Shown: positions 47,849 to 57,602, counted from the stretch's first letter. The stretch is DNA of 64,000 nt from an uncultured Gemmatimonadaceae bacterium (GCA_963790305.1 CAWBOC010000005.1:480001-544000), one strand, 5' to 3'. The notes: generated by a model from the letters alone, not told the origin. A program made the numbers and translations.

Positions 47849-49336
47849 TTACGGCTTGGTCTTTTGGTTCTTTGCGCCAGGTGGCCGTATCTCCGGTTTG
47901 CCTTGCGATTTCTCGTCCGGCTTGCCGGTGGCTTTGTCCTCGGCCTTCGCTTCGGACTTCTCTTCCTTCGCTTCCGCCTTCACCTCGGCCTTCTCTTCCT
48001 GCTTGGCTTCTGGCTTCGAGGCCGGCTCTTCCTGCTTCTGTACCGGGTCGGGCTCGGGCTTCGACACCGGAGTCTCGGGCTGGCGCGGCGGCTCGACCGT
48101 CACGGCCGGCTTTTCAGCCTTGTGCTCGATCTTCTCCGCCTCTTGCTCGGCCTTCTGCTCGTGGCGGATCTGCTTCTCTTCCTGCTTGTCCTCTTGGCGG
48201 ATCTGCTTCTCTTCCTGCTTCTGCTCCTGGCGGACCTGCTTCTCCTCCTGGCGCTCCTGCTTGACCTCGACCTTCTCCGCCTGCTTGTCCGGCTGCTGCG
48301 GCTGCCCGTTGGTCGGGGTGTCGACGCGTGGTCCGCGACGCGGGTCGTTGGTCTTCTCGTTCTCGATCCCGCGTCCCTTCACGTTCGGATCATCGGTATG
48401 GCCATAGGCGTTGCCGTTGCCGCGCTTCTCCTTCTCCTTCTGCTTCTCCTTCACGTCCTTGACGTCGTTGTTCGTGTCGGTGCGCGGAGGGTCACGGTCG
48501 ATGACCATGGGCGCGTGCTCCGGCGGCGTCGGCTCGCTCACGCGATCGATCGGTGCGCGAACGGGCGTCGTCTCTGGGAGACGGCGACGAGCGCGCTGCC
48601 CATTGCCGACGACGATCGAGTCGGGACGCGTCGGCGCCGATCTAACGATGGTCCCGCCCGATGGCGCGTTGACGGGGCACCAGGCGCGGTCGGCGACTTC
48701 CTCCGGAACCTCGTAGACCGTGCGGTTCGCGCAGTAGATGCGGACGGTGCGATACGGATCGCTCGCATACGTCGCGGCGAGCGCGTAGGCGTCTTCCGCC
48801 CACGACTCGTCGATGACCGAGGGAAGGAAGGCGCGCGAGATGGCCCGCATCGTCACGTACGGGTTCGTGCCTCGATAGGCGGCGGGGCCGAGTACGCGGC
48901 GCATGTAGCTCGGGTGGAACGCTTCGTCGGGCAGCCGAAGCGGCTCATCCGAGGCGATCGCATACACCCAGCGCGCCGGCACCGCGGTTCCCGAGGGACG
49001 CCCGTAGTACATCGTCGACTGAACCTTCCACGACACCGGGACCCAGTTCAGGCCCGCCAGCATCCAGGTGCGCTGGTGCGCGTACGACGGCGCGAGCAGT
49101 GCGACGCCGCGGTCGGGCACGATTTCGAACAGCGCCACGTACGATGGGCGGTTCGTTTGCACGACCAGCTGTCCGCGGATGGGCCGCGCGAGCGTGATCT
49201 CGAGTGGCGCGATACGCGGTGGCGGTGGCGGCGGTGGCGGCGCGGGACGACGGACGACGTACACGTTGCCCGAAGAGCACGCGGCGAGCACGATGGACGC
49301 AACGAGCGTTGCGACGCGGCGAAGTGGAGTACGCAT
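47849..49336 (-). CDS. Lipoprotein with a DUF4384-like N-terminal domain and a charged repetitive C-terminus
   Basis: LAAC lipobox, poly-Pro linker, TNRPSYVALFEI..GVALLAP; KQEEKQIRQED-type 11-aa repeats. Confidence 0.75.
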   Translation of the reverse strand: MRTPLRRVATLVASIVLAACSSGNVYVVRRPAPPPPPPPPRIAPLEITLARPIRGQLVVQTNRPSYVALFEIVPDRGVALLAPSYAHQRTWMLAGLNWVPVSWKVQSTMYYGRPSGTAVPARWVYAIASDEPLRLPDEAFHPSYMRRVLGPAAYRGTNPYVTMRAISRAFLPSVIDESWAEDAYALAATYASDPYRTVRIYCANRTVYEVPEEVADRAWCPVNAPSGGTIVRSAPTRPDSIVVGNGQRARRRLPETTPVRAPIDRVSEPTPPEHAPMVIDRDPPRTDTNNDVKDVKEKQKEKEKRGNGNAYGHTDDPNVKGRGIENEKTNDPRRGPRVDTPTNGQPQQPDKQAEKVEVKQERQEEKQVRQEQKQEEKQIRQEDKQEEKQIRHEQKAEQEAEKIEHKAEKPAVTVEPPRQPETPVSKPEPDPVQKQEEPASKPEAKQEEKAEVKAEAKEEKSEAKAEDKATGKPDEKSQGKPEIRPPGAKNQKTKP

Positions 49337-49564
49337 GTGCGGGTCCTTGCCGGAAACGGCAGAGACGTCGGGAAATCAGAATTCGATGTCGGAATTCAGA
49401 GGGCACGATGACCTGCCTGTGCCCCTTGGTTGACGCGTGCAGGGTCGCTGTGGAAACGGGGATGGCGTTTGTTCGGGGCGGAACTTTTTACAGGCCTGCC
49501 CATCGCTCGGAACCGAGACTTGGTCTACATTGGTCGCCCCCTGCAACCATTTAGCGAGGATCCC

Positions 49565-50029
49565 ATGGCCAATCCGCCCAAGGGCTACCACACCGTCACG
49601 CCGGGCATCACGGTCAGCGACGGGGCGAAGGCGATCGAGTTCTACAAGGAGGCATTCGGAGCCGAGGAGGTGGAACGCATGGAAGGCCCCAATGGCTCGA
49701 TCATGCACGCGGAGATCCGCATCGGGGATTCGACCATCATGCTCGGGGGCGAGAATCCGATGTGGGGGATGAAGTCGCCACTCACCCTGGGCGGCGTCCA
49801 CGGCTCGCTTCACATCTACGTTGACGACGCCGACGCGGCCTTCGCCCGGGCGCTCGACGCCGGGTGCGAAGTCGCTCAGCCGCTGGAAGATGCCTTCTGG
49901 GGCGATCGCTATGGCAAAGTCACCGACCCCTTTGGTCACCAGTGGGGCCTGGCGACGCGCGTGAAGGAGTTGAGCAGGGAGGAGATGCGGAAGGCCGGGG
50001 AGGCGTGGATGCAGACGATGGCGGGGTGA
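49565..50029 (+). CDS. VOC/glyoxalase family protein (PhnB-like)
   Basis: YHTVTP, AIEFYKEAFGA, HAEIRIGDS, FWGDRYG.V.DPFGH.W. Confidence 0.92.
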   Translation: MANPPKGYHTVTPGITVSDGAKAIEFYKEAFGAEEVERMEGPNGSIMHAEIRIGDSTIMLGGENPMWGMKSPLTLGGVHGSLHIYVDDADAAFARALDAGCEVAQPLEDAFWGDRYGKVTDPFGHQWGLATRVKELSREEMRKAGEAWMQTMAG

Positions 50030-50275
50030 CTCCGGGGTGCGACAGTTGTGGTAGGCGACCATCGACTGTCGCACCAATCCATCGGAAGGCTAAAATCGCC
50101 GCGGGCTAAATTTGACGCAGATCGTTGTGGGCCAATCAGTTAGCACCACTCTACATATGGCCCGTCGGTTGCGCTTGCCCCGCTCCGGTGCGAGCTCCCT
50201 CTGTGCTCGAAGGGAGCTCGCACCGTTTCTCTTTCCCCGTGGGGCGGTAACCCCCAACACCCGCACGCTATAGAT

Positions 50276-50953
50276 ATGTTCGAGATCGTTCGTCAGGATT
50301 TGCGCCGTTGTGTTCGCGTCAACCAGATGGGCACCTCTCATGGCCTGGCGGATTACCTCCGCGAGCTGTTCAACCCGGGAACGCAGGCGATCATCATCCA
50401 TCGCTTCGGCGTGTGGTCAGATCGAATCCGCTTTGTTCCGCTGCGTTATTTCCTCCGCACGGTGCACTTTCTGGTGCAGGCTTTCTTCCCCTGGCGCGCT
50501 GGTATCTACATCCCGATCAGGGCTGACATCGGGCCGGGGATAGCAATCCATACGTGGGGTGGGGGTGTCTTTTTGCCGGCCTGCAAGATCGGTCGGAATT
50601 TGACCATCATCGGAGGCGGCGTGCTGTTCGATTACGCCACGCTGGAGATTGGCGACAATGTGACGATCGGTGCCGGAACGAAGGGCACAGGCCGCCGGCG
50701 CATCGGTAACCGGGTCACGACGGGGCCCAACTCGGTCGTGATCGAGGACGTTCCCGATGACAGCCTCGTCTTCGGGAACCCGGGTCGCGTCATTGCAAAG
50801 CCGCGCCCGAGGCGGATGGGCGCGAGAGCTGGCGCCTCGAATGCGGCACAGCCCGCGCACGTCGCCAGCGAACCCAGCGCGATCAACGCGCCGGAGCCCG
50901 ACTCGGCTGCGACCGCCCCGTCCGTCAGCGCTCCGCGGCTCGCGGCGCTCTAG
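50276..50953 (+). CDS. Serine O-acetyltransferase-like left-handed beta-helix acyltransferase
   Basis: Helical N-domain, GIYIP..A.IGPG..IH, hexapeptide repeats, NSVV..DVP....GNP.RVI. Confidence 0.8.
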   Translation: MFEIVRQDLRRCVRVNQMGTSHGLADYLRELFNPGTQAIIIHRFGVWSDRIRFVPLRYFLRTVHFLVQAFFPWRAGIYIPIRADIGPGIAIHTWGGGVFLPACKIGRNLTIIGGGVLFDYATLEIGDNVTIGAGTKGTGRRRIGNRVTTGPNSVVIEDVPDDSLVFGNPGRVIAKPRPRRMGARAGASNAAQPAHVASEPSAINAPEPDSAATAPSVSAPRLAAL

Positions 50954-50987
50954 TCTCCTCCTTCCCTAACGAGACGCACGGCGCGCC

Positions 50988-52151
50988 GTGGATTTCGCGC
51001 TGACCGCGGAGCAGGTCGAGCTCCGCGACAACGTTCTCGACTTCGCCCGCCGTGGTCTGAGTGCCGAGGCGGATGGAAGCGCCGCCGCGTCCATCGGCGG
51101 CTTCCGACGCGACCTGTGGGAACGCTGTGGGGAGTTCGGCATCCTCGGCTTGCCAGTCCCTAACGAGTACGGTGGCAGCGGGCACGACATGGTCACCACG
51201 ACCATCGCGATGGAGGCCCTCGGCGAGGGATGCCCCGATCACGGGCTGCTCTTCTCAATGCACGCGCACATGTGGGCAGTGGTGACGCCGATCATCGCGT
51301 TCGGTACACCGGAGCAGCGTGAACGCTATCTGCCGCGACTGGTGGACGGCTCATGGGTGGCGGCACATGGCATCAGCGAGCCCGGGTCCGGCTCCGACGC
51401 GTACTCGATGCGGGCGCGCGCGATCAAGGAGGGCGATCAGTACGTGCTGAACGGAACGAAGACGTTCGTGACGAACGCGCCGGTGGGTGACCTGTTCGTC
51501 GTCTTCGCCACCGTGAAGCCTGAACGCGGAATGTGGGGCGTGACCGCGTTTCTCATCGAGAAGGGAACGCCGGGACTTTCCGTCTCCCGTCCCTTCAAGA
51601 AGCTGGGTCTCACGACGTCGCCGATGGGCGAGGTCGTGCTCGACGATTGTCGCATCCCGGTTGCCAACCGGCTCGGGAAGGAAGGACAGGGTGCGACGAT
51701 CTTCAACCACTCGATGGGATGGGAGCGGAGCTGTATCCTTGCCAGTCAGGTGGGTCGAATGCAGCAGCAGCTCGACGCATGCGTTCGCTACGCCCAGGAG
51801 CGCGAACAGTTCGGGAAGCCGATTGGAAGCTTCCAGCTCGTCGCCGCCAAGATCGCCGACATGAAGGTGCGACTCGAGACGTCGCGCCTGCTCCTGTATC
51901 GCGCCGCGTGGCAGCTCTCGAGAGCCGCCGAGGGCAGTGCGATGGAAGCGGCGATGGCGAAGCTGTACATCAGCGAGTCAGCCGTGGCGTCGGCGCTCGA
52001 CGCCGTGCAACTGCACGGCGGCTATGGCTACATGCAGGACTTCCACGTCGAGCAGCAGTTGCGCGATTCCATTGGCGGCACCCTGTACTCCGGTACGTCG
52101 GAGATCCAGCGAATGCTCATCGCGCGCCACCTCGGACTCAGCCCCGCCTGA
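50988..52151 (+). CDS. Acyl-CoA dehydrogenase family, probable L-prolyl-S-PCP dehydrogenase (PltE/RedW/AnaB-like)
   Basis: ISEPGSGSD, LNGTKTFVTNAP, HSMGWERSCI, QLHGGYGY, YSGTSEIQR; adjacent to the A domain and PCP. Confidence 0.85.
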   Translation: MDFALTAEQVELRDNVLDFARRGLSAEADGSAAASIGGFRRDLWERCGEFGILGLPVPNEYGGSGHDMVTTTIAMEALGEGCPDHGLLFSMHAHMWAVVTPIIAFGTPEQRERYLPRLVDGSWVAAHGISEPGSGSDAYSMRARAIKEGDQYVLNGTKTFVTNAPVGDLFVVFATVKPERGMWGVTAFLIEKGTPGLSVSRPFKKLGLTTSPMGEVVLDDCRIPVANRLGKEGQGATIFNHSMGWERSCILASQVGRMQQQLDACVRYAQEREQFGKPIGSFQLVAAKIADMKVRLETSRLLLYRAAWQLSRAAEGSAMEAAMAKLYISESAVASALDAVQLHGGYGYMQDFHVEQQLRDSIGGTLYSGTSEIQRMLIARHLGLSPA

Positions 52152-52152
52152 C

Positions 52153-53748
52153 ATGAATTATCTCCTCTGGCATGCGCCGGCTCAGAGCGCGCGCGTATTT
52201 CCCAATCGACCGGCGGTGCAGGACACCGCCACGACCTTCACGCATCGCGAGCTGCACGAGCTCAGCAATGGCGTGGCTACCCTGCTCACGTCCTGCGGCC
52301 TAACGCGCGGTGAGCGCGTGGGAATGTGGATGCCGAAGCAGGCGCGCTCCGTCGCCGTCATGCTGGGCGCCTCGAAGTGCGGCGGCATCTACGTCCCTGT
52401 GGATCCGCAGGCCCCCGTCGAGCGGGCCGCGTACATCCTCGGCAACGCCGACATCAGCGTGCTGGTCACATCGCGCCGACTCCTGGCGTCGCTGTCGCAG
52501 CACATCGGAGCCTTTGCGTCCTTGCGCGCGATCGTCGTGGTCGATGAGAAGGACGCCGAGCTCTCGGGAAGGCCGGTGCCGACCTTCGGGTGGGGTGCCG
52601 TATCCCCGACGACGGAGCCGCCCGTGGTAGCGAACGCGGTGGACAGCGATCCCGCGTACATGCTCTACACGTCGGGCTCCACGGGAACACCCAAGGGCGT
52701 GGTGATCAGCCACCTCAACGCGCTCACCTTCATCGAGTGGACGATCGCGACGTTCGGTATTCGGCCCGAGGATCGACTGTCGGGCCACGCCCCGCTGCAC
52801 TTCGATCTTTCCGTGTTCGACATTTACGCCGCGCTCGGGACGGGTGCCTGCGTCGTGATGGTCCCCGACCGCATCGCACCCTTTCCAGCCGAGTTCGCGA
52901 AATGGATCGAGGACCAGAGGATCACGGTCTCGTACATGGTGCCCTCGGCGTTCATCCGGCTGCTGAAGCATGGTGAGCTCGAGCGGTTCAGCTATGCCTC
53001 GCTGCGCACGATCCTGTTCGCCGGCGAGGTGTTTCCGGTGAAGCACCTGCGCGAAGTGATGCCGCACTTCCCGAACGCGGACTGGTTCAATCTCTACGGG
53101 CCCACGGAGACGAACGTCTGCACGTGGACGCCTGTCCCCAAGCCGCTCGTTCAGGAGCATGAGCTCTCGATCGGCCAGTCGTGCGAGAACTTCGACTGCT
53201 TCGCGCTCACGAGCGATGGTCGCAAGGCGCGACCCGGAGAGGAAGGGGAGCTCGTCGTGCGCGGGCCTGGCGTCATGCTCGGCTACTGGAAGCTGCCCGA
53301 GCGCACGGCAAAGAATCTGACGCCAAATCCTCTGCACAAGGACTTCACCGATCTCATCTACCGCACCGGCGACCTGGTGCGCGTGCTCGAGGACGGCATC
53401 TCCTTCCAGTACATCGCTCGGCTCGACCATATGGTGAAGACACGCGGCTACCGCGTCGAGCTCGAGGAGATCGAGCACGTCCTGCACGCGAACACGCGCA
53501 TCCGCAACGCTGCGGTCGTGGCCATCCCCAATGACGAGGTCGGCGCGCGGCTTCGCGCGGCGGTCGTCGTCGAAGACGGGGACGGGCTGTCACAGCAGGA
53601 GCTTGCGACCCACTGTGCGACGAGGCTTCCGAGCTACGCGATTCCCGAGCTGTTCGTGATGATGCATGAGCTGCCCACGACGTCCACCGGGAAAGTGGAT
53701 CGTCGCAGTCTCGCCGAATCACTCGGACAATACACGGCGGCGGGGTGA
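52153..53748 (+). CDS. Stand-alone amino acid adenylation enzyme, predicted L-proline specific (PltF/RedM-like)
   Basis: YTSGSTGTPKG, FDLS, NLYGPTE, YRTGDL, TSTGKVDR; manually aligned specificity code D-L-F-Y-L-A-L-V-C-K. Confidence 0.88.
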   Translation: MNYLLWHAPAQSARVFPNRPAVQDTATTFTHRELHELSNGVATLLTSCGLTRGERVGMWMPKQARSVAVMLGASKCGGIYVPVDPQAPVERAAYILGNADISVLVTSRRLLASLSQHIGAFASLRAIVVVDEKDAELSGRPVPTFGWGAVSPTTEPPVVANAVDSDPAYMLYTSGSTGTPKGVVISHLNALTFIEWTIATFGIRPEDRLSGHAPLHFDLSVFDIYAALGTGACVVMVPDRIAPFPAEFAKWIEDQRITVSYMVPSAFIRLLKHGELERFSYASLRTILFAGEVFPVKHLREVMPHFPNADWFNLYGPTETNVCTWTPVPKPLVQEHELSIGQSCENFDCFALTSDGRKARPGEEGELVVRGPGVMLGYWKLPERTAKNLTPNPLHKDFTDLIYRTGDLVRVLEDGISFQYIARLDHMVKTRGYRVELEEIEHVLHANTRIRNAAVVAIPNDEVGARLRAAVVVEDGDGLSQQELATHCATRLPSYAIPELFVMMHELPTTSTGKVDRRSLAESLGQYTAAG

Positions 53749-53826
53749 CGGCATTGCGCAGTGCTCGACGGCCGGTGCAGCTTCAGCGCGGTGTCCTAAC
53801 GTGTTCTCCCATCGAATCGTACCAAC

Positions 53827-54078
53827 ATGCTACGGAATGACCTGACGAAGTTCATCCAGGAGAACCTCCTCCAGAAAGATCCGACCCCGGTCGGGCCGGA
53901 GGATTCCCTCATCGATAGCGGGATCATCAATTCGATGGGCCTGATCCGGCTCGTGAGCTTCATCGAGACTCGGACTGGCGTCCGCATTCCGGATGCGATG
54001 ATCACTCCGGACAACTTCGAGACGGTCACGGCGATCGAGCGGACGATCGACGAGGTGCGGCACCAGCGCGGGGTCTGA
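53827..54078 (+). CDS. Peptidyl carrier protein (PltL/RedO-like)
   Basis: GIINSMG phosphopantetheine site, GVRIP...NFETV.AI. Confidence 0.88.
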   Translation: MLRNDLTKFIQENLLQKDPTPVGPEDSLIDSGIINSMGLIRLVSFIETRTGVRIPDAMITPDNFETVTAIERTIDEVRHQRGV

Positions 54079-54202
54079 CGGCGGGCAGCACGTTCGGCAG
54101 TACGTGATGTCAGGGGATGGAAGCTGTTGCCGGCGCGGGGATTGGTCGTCACCCATGAGATCCTACCGCCTCCTCGAAGTCCCCCCGCCTCGAGAGCCTG
54201 CC

Positions 54203-54925
54203 ATGTCCGAACGAATTGCCCCGCCATGTCCCCACGACGTGGGGCCTGGCATACCAGTCTGCCTTCGCTGTCGTAAGGAGAACCGCGTAACGACGCGAGA
54301 GCGTCGTCGGCGCGCACTTTTTGCCACGGCCGCCCTTGCCCTTGGAATCGCCACCATTGGAGCCGCGGGCGCCGCCGGCATGCTCGACAGCGAGCTGCGT
54401 GCGGCCGGTTTCACAAGACCTGAAGCAGCGGTGCCCTCTACGCCCTCGGTATCCGAGCCGCAGAGCGCCCCCGCGACTGCACCAGATTCTGCACCCGTTG
54501 TGTCCATCGCGTCCGAAGACACCGTGGTGAGCGTAGCGAGCGTGACCACCCCACCCGCACCAGAGCTCGCTCCCACCATTGGTGAAGGCCGGACGGCGTT
54601 ACGCGATGGGATCGTCGCGCAGCGAAGCGGTGATGAGATCACGGTCCACTTCGATACTCCGCTGTCGCGCACGCGGCGGCCGGAGAAGTTCGAAGGGGTC
54701 CTGCGCGCGACGCTCCCGCAGATCTTTGGAGCCTCGGTCGATTCCGCGCTCGCCACCATGCCCACGGGCACGCTGGTGCCTCCGCACGGTCTGACGACGG
54801 ACCTGCCGACGCAGGGACTCTACGTCCCCATACCCGGCGGATCGACGCTCCGCGTCTGGCCCGAGACGCGTTCCGGGGAGGACGGCCCGCTGGTGGTGCG
54901 CTACCGCGTGCTCGTGGTTTCCTAG
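54203..54925 (+). CDS. Hypothetical membrane protein with an N-terminal CxH..CxxC motif
   Basis: CPHD..CLRC, basic patch, TM, Pro-rich linker, globular C-terminus. Confidence 0.7.
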   Translation: MSERIAPPCPHDVGPGIPVCLRCRKENRVTTRERRRRALFATAALALGIATIGAAGAAGMLDSELRAAGFTRPEAAVPSTPSVSEPQSAPATAPDSAPVVSIASEDTVVSVASVTTPPAPELAPTIGEGRTALRDGIVAQRSGDEITVHFDTPLSRTRRPEKFEGVLRATLPQIFGASVDSALATMPTGTLVPPHGLTTDLPTQGLYVPIPGGSTLRVWPETRSGEDGPLVVRYRVLVVS

Positions 54926-54940
54926 CCCGGCCTGCCGCCG

Positions 54941-56350
54941 TTAGGCGGCGTTGCGCCTCGGCACTCGCAGGGTACGTGTTTCTCCATCCATGCCCTGCCG
55001 TATGACCAGCCGCGCATTCTGACAGATCGGGAAGTCATCGAACACCGGCTGTAGCGCGACCAGGAGCGCATCCGCGCTCGGTCCGTAGTGATAGAGTGCT
55101 GTCTCGGTAGGACCATTCCACGCGCCGCGCAGCTCACCGTTCACCGAATCGGCCGCCAGGGCGAGACGCTCCATCAGCGCGTCAATGTCCGTCTCCGCAT
55201 AGATCTCGTCGGGGAGGCTCGTGCCATCGAGGTAAACTGCCAGCCCTTCCTGCACGCCAAAGGGCTGTTCGACGTCCACGCCATCCTGCTGGAAGAGGAA
55301 TTGCGACCCCACGGGCGCGCCAGCGTCCTCGAGGATTCGCTTGGCGACATCGAGCGACTCGTCGAGATTCGCCAGCGACAACTCGACATCGACATACCCG
55401 ATCTCGGCGGCCGAGGTGAGCTGGGAGCCGCCGCCGGTGACCCATCCGAGCATGCGGATGCTGAGCGCGTCCTGCACTGGATCTTCGTAGCGCGCTCCAC
55501 GATCCATGGGCTCTATGTGCTCGGGGATGCGCGCAATGACGACATGCGGGAAGCGGTCACGGTCGACCACATCCTCGCGCACTGCTCCGAGGCGCAGCGG
55601 CGCGGGAGCGGCGCTGATCTCGCCGCGCATCCACTCCGGATGTCGCTGGATGGCATCGAGGATCGGCTCGCCCTGGATCTCGAAGTTCTCGCCGAGCATG
55701 GTTCGCAGCATCGGCTCGAACAGCCCGACGCCCAACTGCTCCCGGAATTCCGCGAGGGTGCGCTCGTCCTTGGCATAGCGCGCGAAGAGCTCGTCCGCAT
55801 CGGTCAGCCGCAGCGGAGCATGGCCCGTGGCGGCGACGCGCTCACCATGAGTCCGGAGGGTCGAGCGCGTGTCGACGGTGGCATCGACACGCTCGACGAC
55901 GAGGTCCGGCGGCATGGGGAGACCGTTGTCGATCGTTCCGCGCGCCGTCACGAGCACACGCCCATCGGCGAGCCAGCTGTGGAGGACGAGGCACTGTACC
56001 GGGTCGCCCTCGGCCGCGGGCACCTCGAACCACATGGCGGCGATCGCGCCGTGGGCGCCGAGCGCGAACCGGACGAACGACTTCTTCGACACGTCGGTGA
56101 GGATGAGCGCGGCGTCCTCGAAATCGCCCAGCGTCTCGAAGCCGACTCTCGTCAGCTCGCGCTCGACTCTCTGGTAAAAGCTGACGTCACGCTCGGGGAA
56201 ATCGGACGCATCCACCCGCTCGTAGCGGGCGCGATGCTCGATCATCGTCCGAATCTGGGCCACGAGCGTTTGCGCTACCTGCTCGAAGACCTCGGCCGGA
56301 AGGGCATCGCCGACTCCATTGCCGTCGTCCTCGTATTCGTCTGCTTGCAT
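54941..56350 (-). CDS. Conserved-looking acidic hypothetical protein
   Basis: GGGAG RBS before ATG 56350; PMDRG.RYEDP...G.VTGGGSQ, GLAVYLDG, GPTETALY. Confidence 0.72.
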   Translation of the reverse strand: MQADEYEDDGNGVGDALPAEVFEQVAQTLVAQIRTMIEHRARYERVDASDFPERDVSFYQRVERELTRVGFETLGDFEDAALILTDVSKKSFVRFALGAHGAIAAMWFEVPAAEGDPVQCLVLHSWLADGRVLVTARGTIDNGLPMPPDLVVERVDATVDTRSTLRTHGERVAATGHAPLRLTDADELFARYAKDERTLAEFREQLGVGLFEPMLRTMLGENFEIQGEPILDAIQRHPEWMRGEISAAPAPLRLGAVREDVVDRDRFPHVVIARIPEHIEPMDRGARYEDPVQDALSIRMLGWVTGGGSQLTSAAEIGYVDVELSLANLDESLDVAKRILEDAGAPVGSQFLFQQDGVDVEQPFGVQEGLAVYLDGTSLPDEIYAETDIDALMERLALAADSVNGELRGAWNGPTETALYHYGPSADALLVALQPVFDDFPICQNARLVIRQGMDGETRTLRVPRRNAA

Positions 56351-56438
56351 CTCCCGCTCTAGATGAAAGGGCTGGAGGAGAGACTGGTCAGACGGCGGGG
56401 AGGCAACGGGACGCCGTTCGCAGTATTCTTCCCGCACG

Positions 56439-57602
56439 ATGTTCCACGACCCGCCTCGGTTTCCGCGCGGCTTTCGAACGGCGAGCCGCAACTGCGGCCT
56501 CAAGCCGTCGGCGAAAGACCTCGCCGTGTTCGTGAGCCAAGTGGACGCTGCCGCGGCGGCGGTGTTCACGCGCAATCTCTTTCCCGGAGCGCCGGTACTG
56601 CTGGGGCGGGAGACGATTCGCGGTGGCGTACTCCGGGCAATCGTCGTGAACAGCAAGGTGAGCAACGTGGCGACGGGAGAGCGTGGTCTCGCGGCAGCAC
56701 GGCGCATGGCGACGGCGGCTGCTCAGGCGTTAGGCACGTCGCCCGATCGCGTGCTCGTCAGCTCGACCGGCGTCATCGGCGTTCCCCTGCCCATCGAGAA
56801 GATCGAGCGAGGACTCAATGGCATCGCGGACGATCTCGTCGATGATCCGCGCGTTGGCGCCGAGGGCATCATGACGACCGACTCGCATCCCAAGGCGCTC
56901 TCGCTGGGCGTCGGTGATGCCACCATCACCTGGGTGGCGAAAGGCTCCGGAATGATCGAGCCGAACATGGCGACGATGCTGTCCTACATCATGACGGACG
57001 CGGCGATCACGGCGCAGGCGCTCGACCGGCTCCTGCGCGAGGTCGTGGACGTCTCGTTCAACATGCTGTCGGTCGACACCGACACGAGCACGTCCGATAC
57101 CTGCGTCATTCTCGCCAATGGCCTGGCCGGACCGGTCGAGGGCGATGCCTTTCGCAAGGCGCTCACGACGGGATCCCTTCGCATGACGGAAATCCTCGCA
57201 CGCGACGGGGAAGGCGCAACCAAGCTGCTGCGGGCGACGGTCCGCGGCGCCGTCAATGCGGCCGAGGCGCGCCGGATCGCGAAGTCCATCGTGAACTCGC
57301 CGCTGGTGAAGACGATGGTCCACGGCGCCGATCCGAACGTTGGCCGGCTGCTCATGGCGGTCGGCAAGTGCTTCGAGTGCACGATTCGTCCAGAGGCCAC
57401 CGAGGCATGGATCAACGGCCAGAAGGTCGTGCACCAGGGCGAGCGGACGTCGTTCGAAGAATCCGCCGTGCGTGCCGCGCTCGCCACCGATACGACCGAT
57501 ATTCTTGTCTCGCTCGGGGTCGGCGACGGGGAAGCAACTGCCTTTGGGTGCGATCTTAGTGCGGGGTACATCTCTGAGAATGCGGCTTACTATTCCAGCT
57601 AA
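56439..57602 (+). CDS. argJ: Ornithine acetyltransferase / N-acetylglutamate synthase
   Basis: STGVIG, IMTTD, KGSGMIEPNMATML autoproteolysis site, RDGEGATK, SPLVKT, GCDLS..Y...NA.Y. Confidence 0.93.
   Translation: MFHDPPRFPRGFRTASRNCGLKPSAKDLAVFVSQVDAAAAAVFTRNLFPGAPVLLGRETIRGGVLRAIVVNSKVSNVATGERGLAAARRMATAAAQALGTSPDRVLVSSTGVIGVPLPIEKIERGLNGIADDLVDDPRVGAEGIMTTDSHPKALSLGVGDATITWVAKGSGMIEPNMATMLSYIMTDAAITAQALDRLLREVVDVSFNMLSVDTDTSTSDTCVILANGLAGPVEGDAFRKALTTGSLRMTEILARDGEGATKLLRATVRGAVNAAEARRIAKSIVNSPLVKTMVHGADPNVGRLLMAVGKCFECTIRPEATEAWINGQKVVHQGERTSFEESAVRAALATDTTDILVSLGVGDGEATAFGCDLSAGYISENAAYYSS

Follow-up and report, generated by a model that had tools for sequence, protein, structure and literature searches.

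What would a proline-handling carrier-protein module be doing in a stretch of genome that holds no polyketide synthase (PKS), nonribosomal peptide synthetase (NRPS) or halogenase, and what would be the role of the left-handed beta-helix (LbH) acyltransferase that leads it? The question is raised by four co-oriented, closely spaced genes on the plus strand of a 64,000-nucleotide stretch (the window; G000:C5:480001-544000) from G000, an uncultured Gemmatimonadaceae bacterium (GCA_963790305.1; 4.31 Mb in 13 contigs, completeness 94.33%). In order, these genes, here called the cassette, encode an LbH acyltransferase, a dehydrogenase of the acyl-CoA dehydrogenase (ACAD) family, a stand-alone adenylation (A) enzyme and a stand-alone peptidyl carrier protein (PCP), the last three forming a triad. 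A first-pass annotation had described this arrangement correctly and had proposed an orphan, minimal system in which the LbH protein moves a pyrrolyl group from the carrier to a sugar, a surface polysaccharide or a small molecule. Genomes are labelled G### (G000 being the source), loci L### and contigs C#, and coordinates without a contig are those of the window. As argued below, we give a probability of about one half to the reading that pyrrolyl-S-PCP is made and that the LbH protein transfers its acyl group to a glycan or to an NRPS-PKS product, and the cassette is probably part of the exopolysaccharide (EPS) pathway of the cell.

The A enzyme is predicted to activate L-proline. It matches the AA-adenyl-dom model with 353 bits, above the cut-off of 317, and its best single-domain match in the PDB is PltF (323.6 bits), followed by GrsA-PheA (217.8) and DltA (203), the 393 bits obtained with LgrA being a sum over two A domains; the kinship of the A enzyme and of the dehydrogenase to PltF, RedM, AnaC and DltA was judged by ranking such PDB scores. 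Using motif anchors set by what we take to be the GrsA position numbering, we reproduced the specificity code D-L-F-Y-L-A-L-V-C-K proposed earlier (DLFYLALVCK), and the same columns read DL(F/L)Y(L/N/C/F)ALVCK in 15/15 related A domains, 11 of which are identical to that of the window. The code also matches the consensus L(L/F)YLALVC for stand-alone L-Pro enzymes, as given in PMC3874040. With the proline code and with PltF at 323.6 bits against 203 for DltA, activation of Ala or Ser by an enzyme clustering with DltA is not indicated. The exosortase-A ligase model TIGR03098 gives 342.3 bits on the same protein, below its cut-off of 592.35. As for the carrier, the GIINSM motif of the first-pass annotation is present, its Ser36 is invariant in 26/26 aligned carriers, and the best PDB matches are 2my5 (38 bits), PltL (37.2) and DltC (30).

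The dehydrogenase has AnaB (430.1 bits), 6cxt_B (342.9) and PigA (318.9) as best PDB matches, and in each alignment the Glu of its WER motif falls on the corresponding WER motif. Together with the proline code and the top single-domain position of PltF, these scores support the triad as a prolyl module of the PltF/PltL/PltE type. From sequence, the most likely product of the dehydrogenase is pyrrolyl-2-carboxyl-S-PCP. It could also stop after one two-electron oxidation, in the manner of AnaB, which halts at a pyrroline, so that the unit passed on would be a dehydroprolyl or pyrroline-carboxyl group; AnaB is indeed the top PDB match (430 bits vs 319 for PigA), and both NCBIfam equivalog cut-offs of the pyrrole pathways are missed (PigA model 452.7 bits, cut-off 500; RedW model 446.3 bits, cut-off 650). 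We know of no sequence marker that separates two- from four-electron enzymes. Speaking for the pyrrole, halogenases of the PltA/Bmp2 type, which act on pyrrolyl-S-carriers, belong to the cassettes of two relatives: in L018 the halogenase gene lies directly after the PCP gene (413 bits to PltA, 5buk and ChlB4), and in G185 a halogenase 61% identical to that of L018 precedes the dehydrogenase. Because of these halogenases and of the family membership of the dehydrogenase, the pyrrole is favoured, and we hold a stop at the pyrroline to be unlikely. G000 has no PF04820 match genome-wide, and the halogenase of L018, used as a query, retrieved from it only 28%-identical flavoproteins.

The LbH protein is a member of a tight and rare family. 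Its Hexapep match (22.9 bits) lies below the Pfam cut-off of 27, and it scores 46.3 bits with the CysE model TIGR01172 (cut-off 210.65), 52.5 with the EpsC model NF041874 (cut-off 150) and 19-19.5 with the LpxD models (cut-offs above 200), all below threshold; a search of the ESM Atlas returned generic Hexapep clusters only. With a profile built from 53 sequences of the family, serine acetyltransferases (SATs) came out on top (97.8 bits, E 5e-27). The AF2 model (pLDDT 88.5, with residues 1-175 mostly above 90) retrieved CysE structures at ranks 1-10 in Foldseek (TM 0.54-0.61), so that the protein is modelled as a SAT fold, with an N-terminal helical domain followed by a left-handed beta helix. 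The active site appears rearranged, since in the profile alignment the nearly invariant His92-Thr of the family falls on the SAT Asp-His pair. The core of the protein is basic (pI 10.3, charge +7.8) and the PCP acidic (pI 4.8, charge -4.4). The family is tight, with 125/1145 candidates at E <=1e-5 and about 110 clusters at least 48% identical, after which identity drops sharply, and it is rare, being present in 6 of the 401 genomes of the phylum Gemmatimonadota that we sampled. Some LbH proteins have thioesterase activity, and a protein of the PaaY/CaiE kind could release pyrrole-2-carboxylate as a small diffusible acid or proofread the carrier; the weak gamma-carbonic-anhydrase-like PDB matches and the missing canonical SAT Asp-His pair would fit such a role. 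We consider it very unlikely, as the profile prefers SATs (97.8 bits) to gamma-carbonic-anhydrase-like proteins (<=57 bits), the top Foldseek hits are all CysE, and the constant polysaccharide context of the relatives, described below, points to a role tied to a polymer.

The LbH gene and the triad are inherited together. The dehydrogenase gene lies directly after the LbH gene in 18/20 informative loci of the family (the exceptions being L017 and L054). On genome contigs 7/8 family loci keep the order LbH-ACAD-A-PCP, with LbH identities as low as 50%, and the remaining one, L017 in G005, has LbH-PCP only; G314 provides a ninth full cassette, G000 counted. The metagenome search, made from a narrow LbH alignment and thus reaching close relatives only, gave 16 loci, one of which (L051) is the same record as L018. 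The dehydrogenase gene directly follows the LbH gene in nine of them, L047 and L057 break off with the LbH gene, and L056, L058 and L059 carry distant LbH genes (32-37% identical) with no dehydrogenase shown. A second phylum was also sampled: among 401 genomes of Acidobacteriota, five have distant LbH homologues (32-38% identical), and two of these, G578 and G820, have the complete LbH-ACAD-A-PCP order. A branch with 97/96 support divides the LbH tree (31 rows, rooted at the midpoint only): the 19 rows linked to a dehydrogenase, the two PCP-only rows and three unlinked ones are all found on one side, and the other side consists of seven rows without linkage. The first-pass annotation had treated loss of this association as damaging to its proposal; the informative loci, the tree split and the two acidobacterial genomes show it to be conserved.

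Chance adjacency of the LbH gene was considered and rejected on the strength of the LbH tree, of the second phylum and of a non-orthologous replacement: G002 and G003, of the same genus as G000, have 62%-identical ACAD-A-PCP genes preceded, at the same upstream position, by a non-orthologous maltose-acetyltransferase-like Hexapep gene.

Two natural splits bear on which of the four gene products work together. At the site of G005 equivalent to that of the window, clean deletions have removed the LbH gene (matching window 50325-50920) and the PCP gene (53738-54122), and have left the dehydrogenase (95% identical) and A (89% identical) genes intact; the EPS locus of G005 holds an LbH and a PCP gene separated by 13 bases, and G021, whose EPS locus is almost identical, carries 2761 bases of dehydrogenase and A genes in that gap. 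In G185, a halogenase-ACAD-A locus with its own PCP is found on C17, and an LbH gene (39% identical) paired with a PCP-like gene on C57. Most simply, LbH and PCP would form a working pair, with stepwise decay or a mixed bin as the alternatives. These two genomes, which keep LbH and PCP together and apart from dehydrogenase and A, speak for the suggestion that LbH protein and carrier act jointly, as does the EPS context of the relatives.

That context is seen once the copy in the window is recognised as a relocated one, inserted at a secondary site. The genes that flank it, a VOC-family gene and a gene for a 273-aa protein, adjoin with nothing between them in G002, G003 and G007, which marks the window cassette as an insertion of about 4 kb; the cassette is found at the same site in G004, G008 and the metagenome loci L044-L046. 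In the other relatives, cassettes lie among genes for glycosyltransferases, Acyl_transf_3 proteins, a carbamoyltransferase, an Asn-synthase-type amidotransferase, a FemAB-like protein, a deacetylase, GDSL proteins and GSDH, and nearly all of these flank genes map to C9:915-971 kb of G000. Within this C9 region, the XrtA-system FemAB model TIGR03019 (320.2 bits, cut-off 260.35) and the deacetylase model TIGR03006 (334.6 bits, cut-off 276.2) are matched above threshold, and the matches to XrtA hydrolases 1 and 2, the amidotransferase and the glycosyltransferases are below it. Both hydrolase genes stand directly upstream of the cassette in L016 and L020. In Acidobacteriota, the cassettes are found between EPS export, chain-length and kinase genes on one side and a priming glycosyltransferase gene on the other, with A-PCP and P450-C-A NRPS genes after them. 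The descriptions orphan and minimal are thus not supported for the cassette. A self-contained system with no partner genes anywhere would agree with the lack of a partner gene within the window, and it is hardly credible given the insertion site, the EPS and NRPS-PKS loci of relatives in two phyla and the partner orthologues on C9.

The candidate partners include an assembly line. Genome-wide scans with Condensation, ketoacyl-synt and Trp_halogenase found nothing on contig C5, and the window contains no adjacent acceptor of the kind typical of type II pyrrole triads (ketosynthase (KS), condensation (C) domain, halogenase or dedicated transferase). The earlier statement that PKS, NRPS and halogenase are absent is therefore right for the window and wrong for the genome, where the proposed search for a partner finds an NRPS-PKS on C9 and no PF04820 halogenase. 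This, the only NRPS of G000 (C9:955838-969526; L003 and L004), has the organisation C-A-PCP-C-A(luciferase-type MOx)-PCP, followed by KS-AT-KR-DH-ACP, with no thioesterase (TE) domain. Beyond it lie two alpha/beta hydrolase genes, a flippase gene, genes for AT3 proteins and a gene for an Sfp-type phosphopantetheinyl transferase (PPTase; C9:970869-971690). The C9 A(MOx) domain is split over overlapping open reading frames (ORFs; 962840-969526 and 961660-962961); the frames of relatives are continuous (2489-2669 aa), which indicates a frameshift or an assembly indel. The carbamoyltransferase gene at C9:915214-917291 and the XrtA-type amidotransferase gene at C9:930957-932910 are likewise each broken into two or three pieces or ORFs when matched to relatives, which suggests further frameshifts or assembly indel errors.

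Could the triad simply supply this assembly line? It may be that pyrrolyl-S-PCP is the starter of the C9 NRPS-PKS, the LbH protein being a plain acetyl-CoA-dependent O-acetyltransferase of the polysaccharide or an accessory and the hydrolases serving for offloading and transfer. C domains of other pathways accept pyrrolyl-carrier starters, and the NRPS of G000 opens with a C domain and has no TE; orthologous NRPS (92-93% identical) occur in G004, G005, G007 and G008, all with cassette genes. Cassette and NRPS-PKS-hydrolase genes are even contiguous in G314 (on one strand F-A(MOx)-PCP, KS-AT-KR-DH-ACP, hydrolase 2, hydrolase 1, GSDH, LbH-ACAD-A-PCP, F being a formyltransferase domain) and in L049 (on one strand the end of a PKS, hydrolase 2, hydrolase 1 and LbH-ACAD-A-PCP, without GSDH), and A-PCP and P450-C-A genes follow the acidobacterial cassettes. 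On the other hand, the NRPS of G314, L018 and L049 opens with a formyltransferase domain and lacks a C domain, and the acidobacterial line opens with A-PCP, so that a pyrrolyl starter has no obvious point of entry there. A canonical partner cluster elsewhere in the genome had been named as something that would explain the triad away; NRPS-PKS and hydrolase orthologues do exist on C9, so that this objection applies in part, and since in G314 and L049 the first NRPS domain is a formylation domain, an NRPS of the C9 type is no straightforward explanation of the triad. The A(MOx) NRPS is moreover far commoner than the cassette (21/401 Gemmatimonadota genomes, with the LbH cassette present in only three of them), a C-type NRPS is found in G001 without any match to the dehydrogenase, and a starter role leaves unexplained that LbH and PCP stay together apart from dehydrogenase and A. 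We therefore judge it unlikely. As a separate observation, a formyltransferase-A(MOx)-PCP protein of about 1550 aa, usually followed by KS-AT-KR-DH-ACP, is widespread in Gemmatimonadota EPS loci (for instance L018:523-5199 and L043:11444-15997).

In the pathway that we prefer, with the LbH protein as transferase, the A enzyme would adenylate L-proline and load the PCP, as its code and similarity suggest, and the holo form of the PCP would depend on the Sfp-type PPTase of C9. The ACAD-type flavoenzyme would then oxidise prolyl-S-PCP, most likely to pyrrolyl-2-carboxyl-S-PCP, as proposed above from its family and from the halogenases of relatives. The basic LbH protein, from a clade that accompanies carrier proteins, may draw its acyl group from the PCP thioester instead of acetyl-CoA and place it on a hydroxyl or an amine, a step suggested by gene linkage. 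The acceptor would lie within the XrtA-type EPS/NRPS-PKS pathway at C9:905-974 kb, and could be a sugar of the polymer or a peptide-polyketide. A possible, though doubtful, extension is that a whole clade of SAT-fold LbH proteins, in Gemmatimonadota and Acidobacteriota at least, uses pyrrolyl-2-carboxyl-S-PCP as donor after abandoning acetyl-CoA, and installs pyrrole-2-carbonyl groups, halogenated in some lineages, on exopolysaccharide.

Several observations weigh against this reading. The LbH-PCP partnership is drawn from gene linkage, which does not show binding, and the catalytic competence of the LbH protein is only inferred, the SAT Asp-His pair being out of register in the family, with His92 one position before the SAT catalytic His. 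The dehydrogenase is below both equivalog cut-offs and is nearest to AnaB. In L054 the LbH gene stands by itself, and no carrier gene is close by in L040 and L041 (43-46% identical). Several cassette loci come from the genus of the window itself, possibly from the same populations, and cannot be counted as independent. The NRPS in this genus opens with a C domain that could take pyrrolyl-S-PCP directly, and the two alpha/beta hydrolases are alternative candidates for the transferase. Finally, exosortase (PF09721) has no match in the 94.33%-complete G000, despite XrtA families above cut-off. Taken as a whole, the first-pass interpretation keeps its triad, its linkage of the LbH gene and its idea of an LbH protein served by the carrier, and loses its orphan and minimal character.

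Comparison with known systems helps to place the cassette. With PltF/PltL/PltE, PigI/PigG/PigA, RedM/RedO/RedW and AnaC/AnaD/AnaB it shares a Pro-specific stand-alone A enzyme, a small PCP and an ACAD-family dehydrogenase; it differs from the pyrrole triads by having no adjacent KS, C domain or halogenase, by being led by a SAT-fold LbH protein, by lying in polysaccharide loci in relatives and by a dehydrogenase that stays under the PigA and RedW equivalog cut-offs. In the biosynthesis of clorobiocin and coumermycin (CloN/CouN), a carrier-bound pyrrolyl-2-carboxyl group is moved to a noviose hydroxyl by dedicated stand-alone acyltransferases which are not known to be LbH proteins; here the candidate transferase has a SAT fold, with the two alpha/beta hydrolases as alternatives. 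CysE and EpsC resemble the LbH protein in their N-terminal helical domain and left-handed beta helix, whereas the LbH protein scores far below their cut-offs, has the Asp-His out of register and is encoded with a carrier and not with cysteine synthesis. A precedent for a carrier-protein donor is offered by LpxA and LpxD, LbH acyltransferases that take acyl-ACP and place the acyl group, a fatty acyl, on a sugar; their similarity to the LbH protein of the window is weak (LpxD 19.5 bits) and they belong to another sub-fold family.

Two further systems feed acyl groups to the cell surface or are found in EPS loci. In the Dlt system (DltA/DltC/DltB/DltD), an A enzyme and a small carrier supply an acyl or aminoacyl group to a surface polymer, as would the cassette (DltA 203 bits, DltC 30 bits), but the code of the cassette is that of proline and not of D-Ala, a dehydrogenase is added, and a cytoplasmic LbH protein takes the place of the MBOAT/SGNH relay. 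The set of PEP-CTERM ligase, ACP, hydrolase 1 and hydrolase 2 of XrtA loci (TIGR03098, TIGR03100, TIGR03101) likewise combines, within an EPS locus of XrtA type, an adenylating enzyme and a carrier with two neighbouring alpha/beta hydrolases; here all scores are below cut-off (342 vs 592, 91.6 vs 168 and 104 vs 203), the code is that of proline and no exosortase was found in G000.

Some Gemmatimonadota triads, those of G185 (L065, G185:C17:5224-12569) and G036 (L031, G036:C5:4858-10368), adjoin SGNH proteins of 905-918 aa in an EPS context. These proteins have a C-terminal GDSL/SGNH match only, with some 620-680 N-terminal residues without match, and are possibly membrane acyltransferase fusions. 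L029 (G040:C104:1-11186), a different pyrrole cluster of Gemmatimonadota, carries genes for a dehydrogenase, a halogenase, an O-methyltransferase, an LpxL-like acyltransferase, a second halogenase, an NMT1/ABC transporter and an A enzyme, and no LbH gene. These three loci fit a general theme in which a pyrrole acyl group borne by a carrier is handed to acyltransferases of glycan or lipid type.

The features of the locus are collected in Table 1.

Table 1. Cassette genes, inserted segment and flanking genes, with positions in the window
Feature	Position	Strand	Remarks
LbH acyltransferase, SAT fold (modelled)	50276..50953	+	225 aa; residues 1-175 core, then variable Ala/Pro-rich tail
ACAD-family prolyl-carrier-protein dehydrogenase (PltE/PigA/RedW/AnaB type)	50988..52151	+	three Acyl-CoA_dh domains
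Stand-alone adenylation enzyme, predicted L-proline	52153..53748	+	AMP-binding 283 bits, with AMP-binding_C
Stand-alone PCP	53827..54078	+	Ser36 in GIINSM; PP-binding 25.7 bits, cut-off 20.8
Inserted segment with cassette, about 4 kb	50030..54103	.	between the VOC gene and the gene for the 273-aa membrane-anchored protein
VOC/glyoxalase-family gene	49430..50029	+	left flank, outside the cassette; Glyoxalase 75 bits
273-aa protein gene	54104..54925	+	right flank, outside the cassette; Cys-rich N-terminus, one hydrophobic segment

The gaps between the four cassette genes are 34, 1 and 78 bases. The longest ORF of the A gene starts at 51937, yet alignments with homologues begin at the first residue of the 531-aa form given in the table. 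All four genes are under purifying selection when compared with three related cassette copies (dN/dS 0.01-0.09; 0.04-0.08 for LbH and 0.01-0.03 for PCP). Against G004 and G008, the dS of the LbH gene reaches 1.56-1.70 (window 50276-50800 vs L014/L015) and exceeds the 0.45-0.77 of the dehydrogenase, A and PCP genes, so that the cassette is a mosaic in which the LbH allele goes further back than the genes around it. Outside the cassette, the 273-aa protein on the right has no Pfam or NCBIfam match and is kept at 68-87% identity in all the same-genus genomes searched, cassette or not, including 5/5 that lack the cassette or are empty at its site. Further on, a 588-aa ORF (54941-56707, minus strand) has no family match, overlaps the ArgJ gene (56439-57602, plus strand) and is probably a spurious ORF of high-GC DNA.

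A scan of 49000-55500 with Rfam (E up to 0.1) gave no match. A promoter scan around the cassette found no site, and the five terminator-like sites of the same scan are uninformative against 3.1 expected. No RNA run carrying the cassette was found among the 21 sequencing runs listed, the holders being soil-metagenome contigs with at most 0.20 of the sampled words. Literature searches found no published description of an LbH-ACAD-A-PCP system, on which subscription journals and supplements may hold relevant data; no paper was found for the specificity code, and the abstracts on pyrrole-decorated polysaccharides, Gemmatimonadota biosynthetic gene clusters and exosortase-linked NRPS/PKS contained nothing on the cassette.

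What is new here is a thiotemplated pyrrole cassette with a dedicated SAT-fold LbH partner and a probable place within an EPS/NRPS-PKS pathway, its mechanism beyond the triad being read from linkage. Pyrrole triads are known as suppliers of starters for antibiotics and pigments, and the present one is wired to a sugar-type acyltransferase in the EPS loci of abundant, poorly cultured soil phyla. For genome mining, this case is a caution that a type II NRPS cassette which looks orphan may belong to a distant locus. If the proposed reading is true, an acyl group resembling those of natural products would join the known decorations of bacterial surface polymers, and the unexplained adenylase, carrier and hydrolase sets of XrtA-type loci would gain a handle. 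The SAT/LbH family would then acquire a carrier-protein donor outside lipid A synthesis, and with it a class of glycan decoration and a type of donor not described for LbH proteins of the SAT fold.

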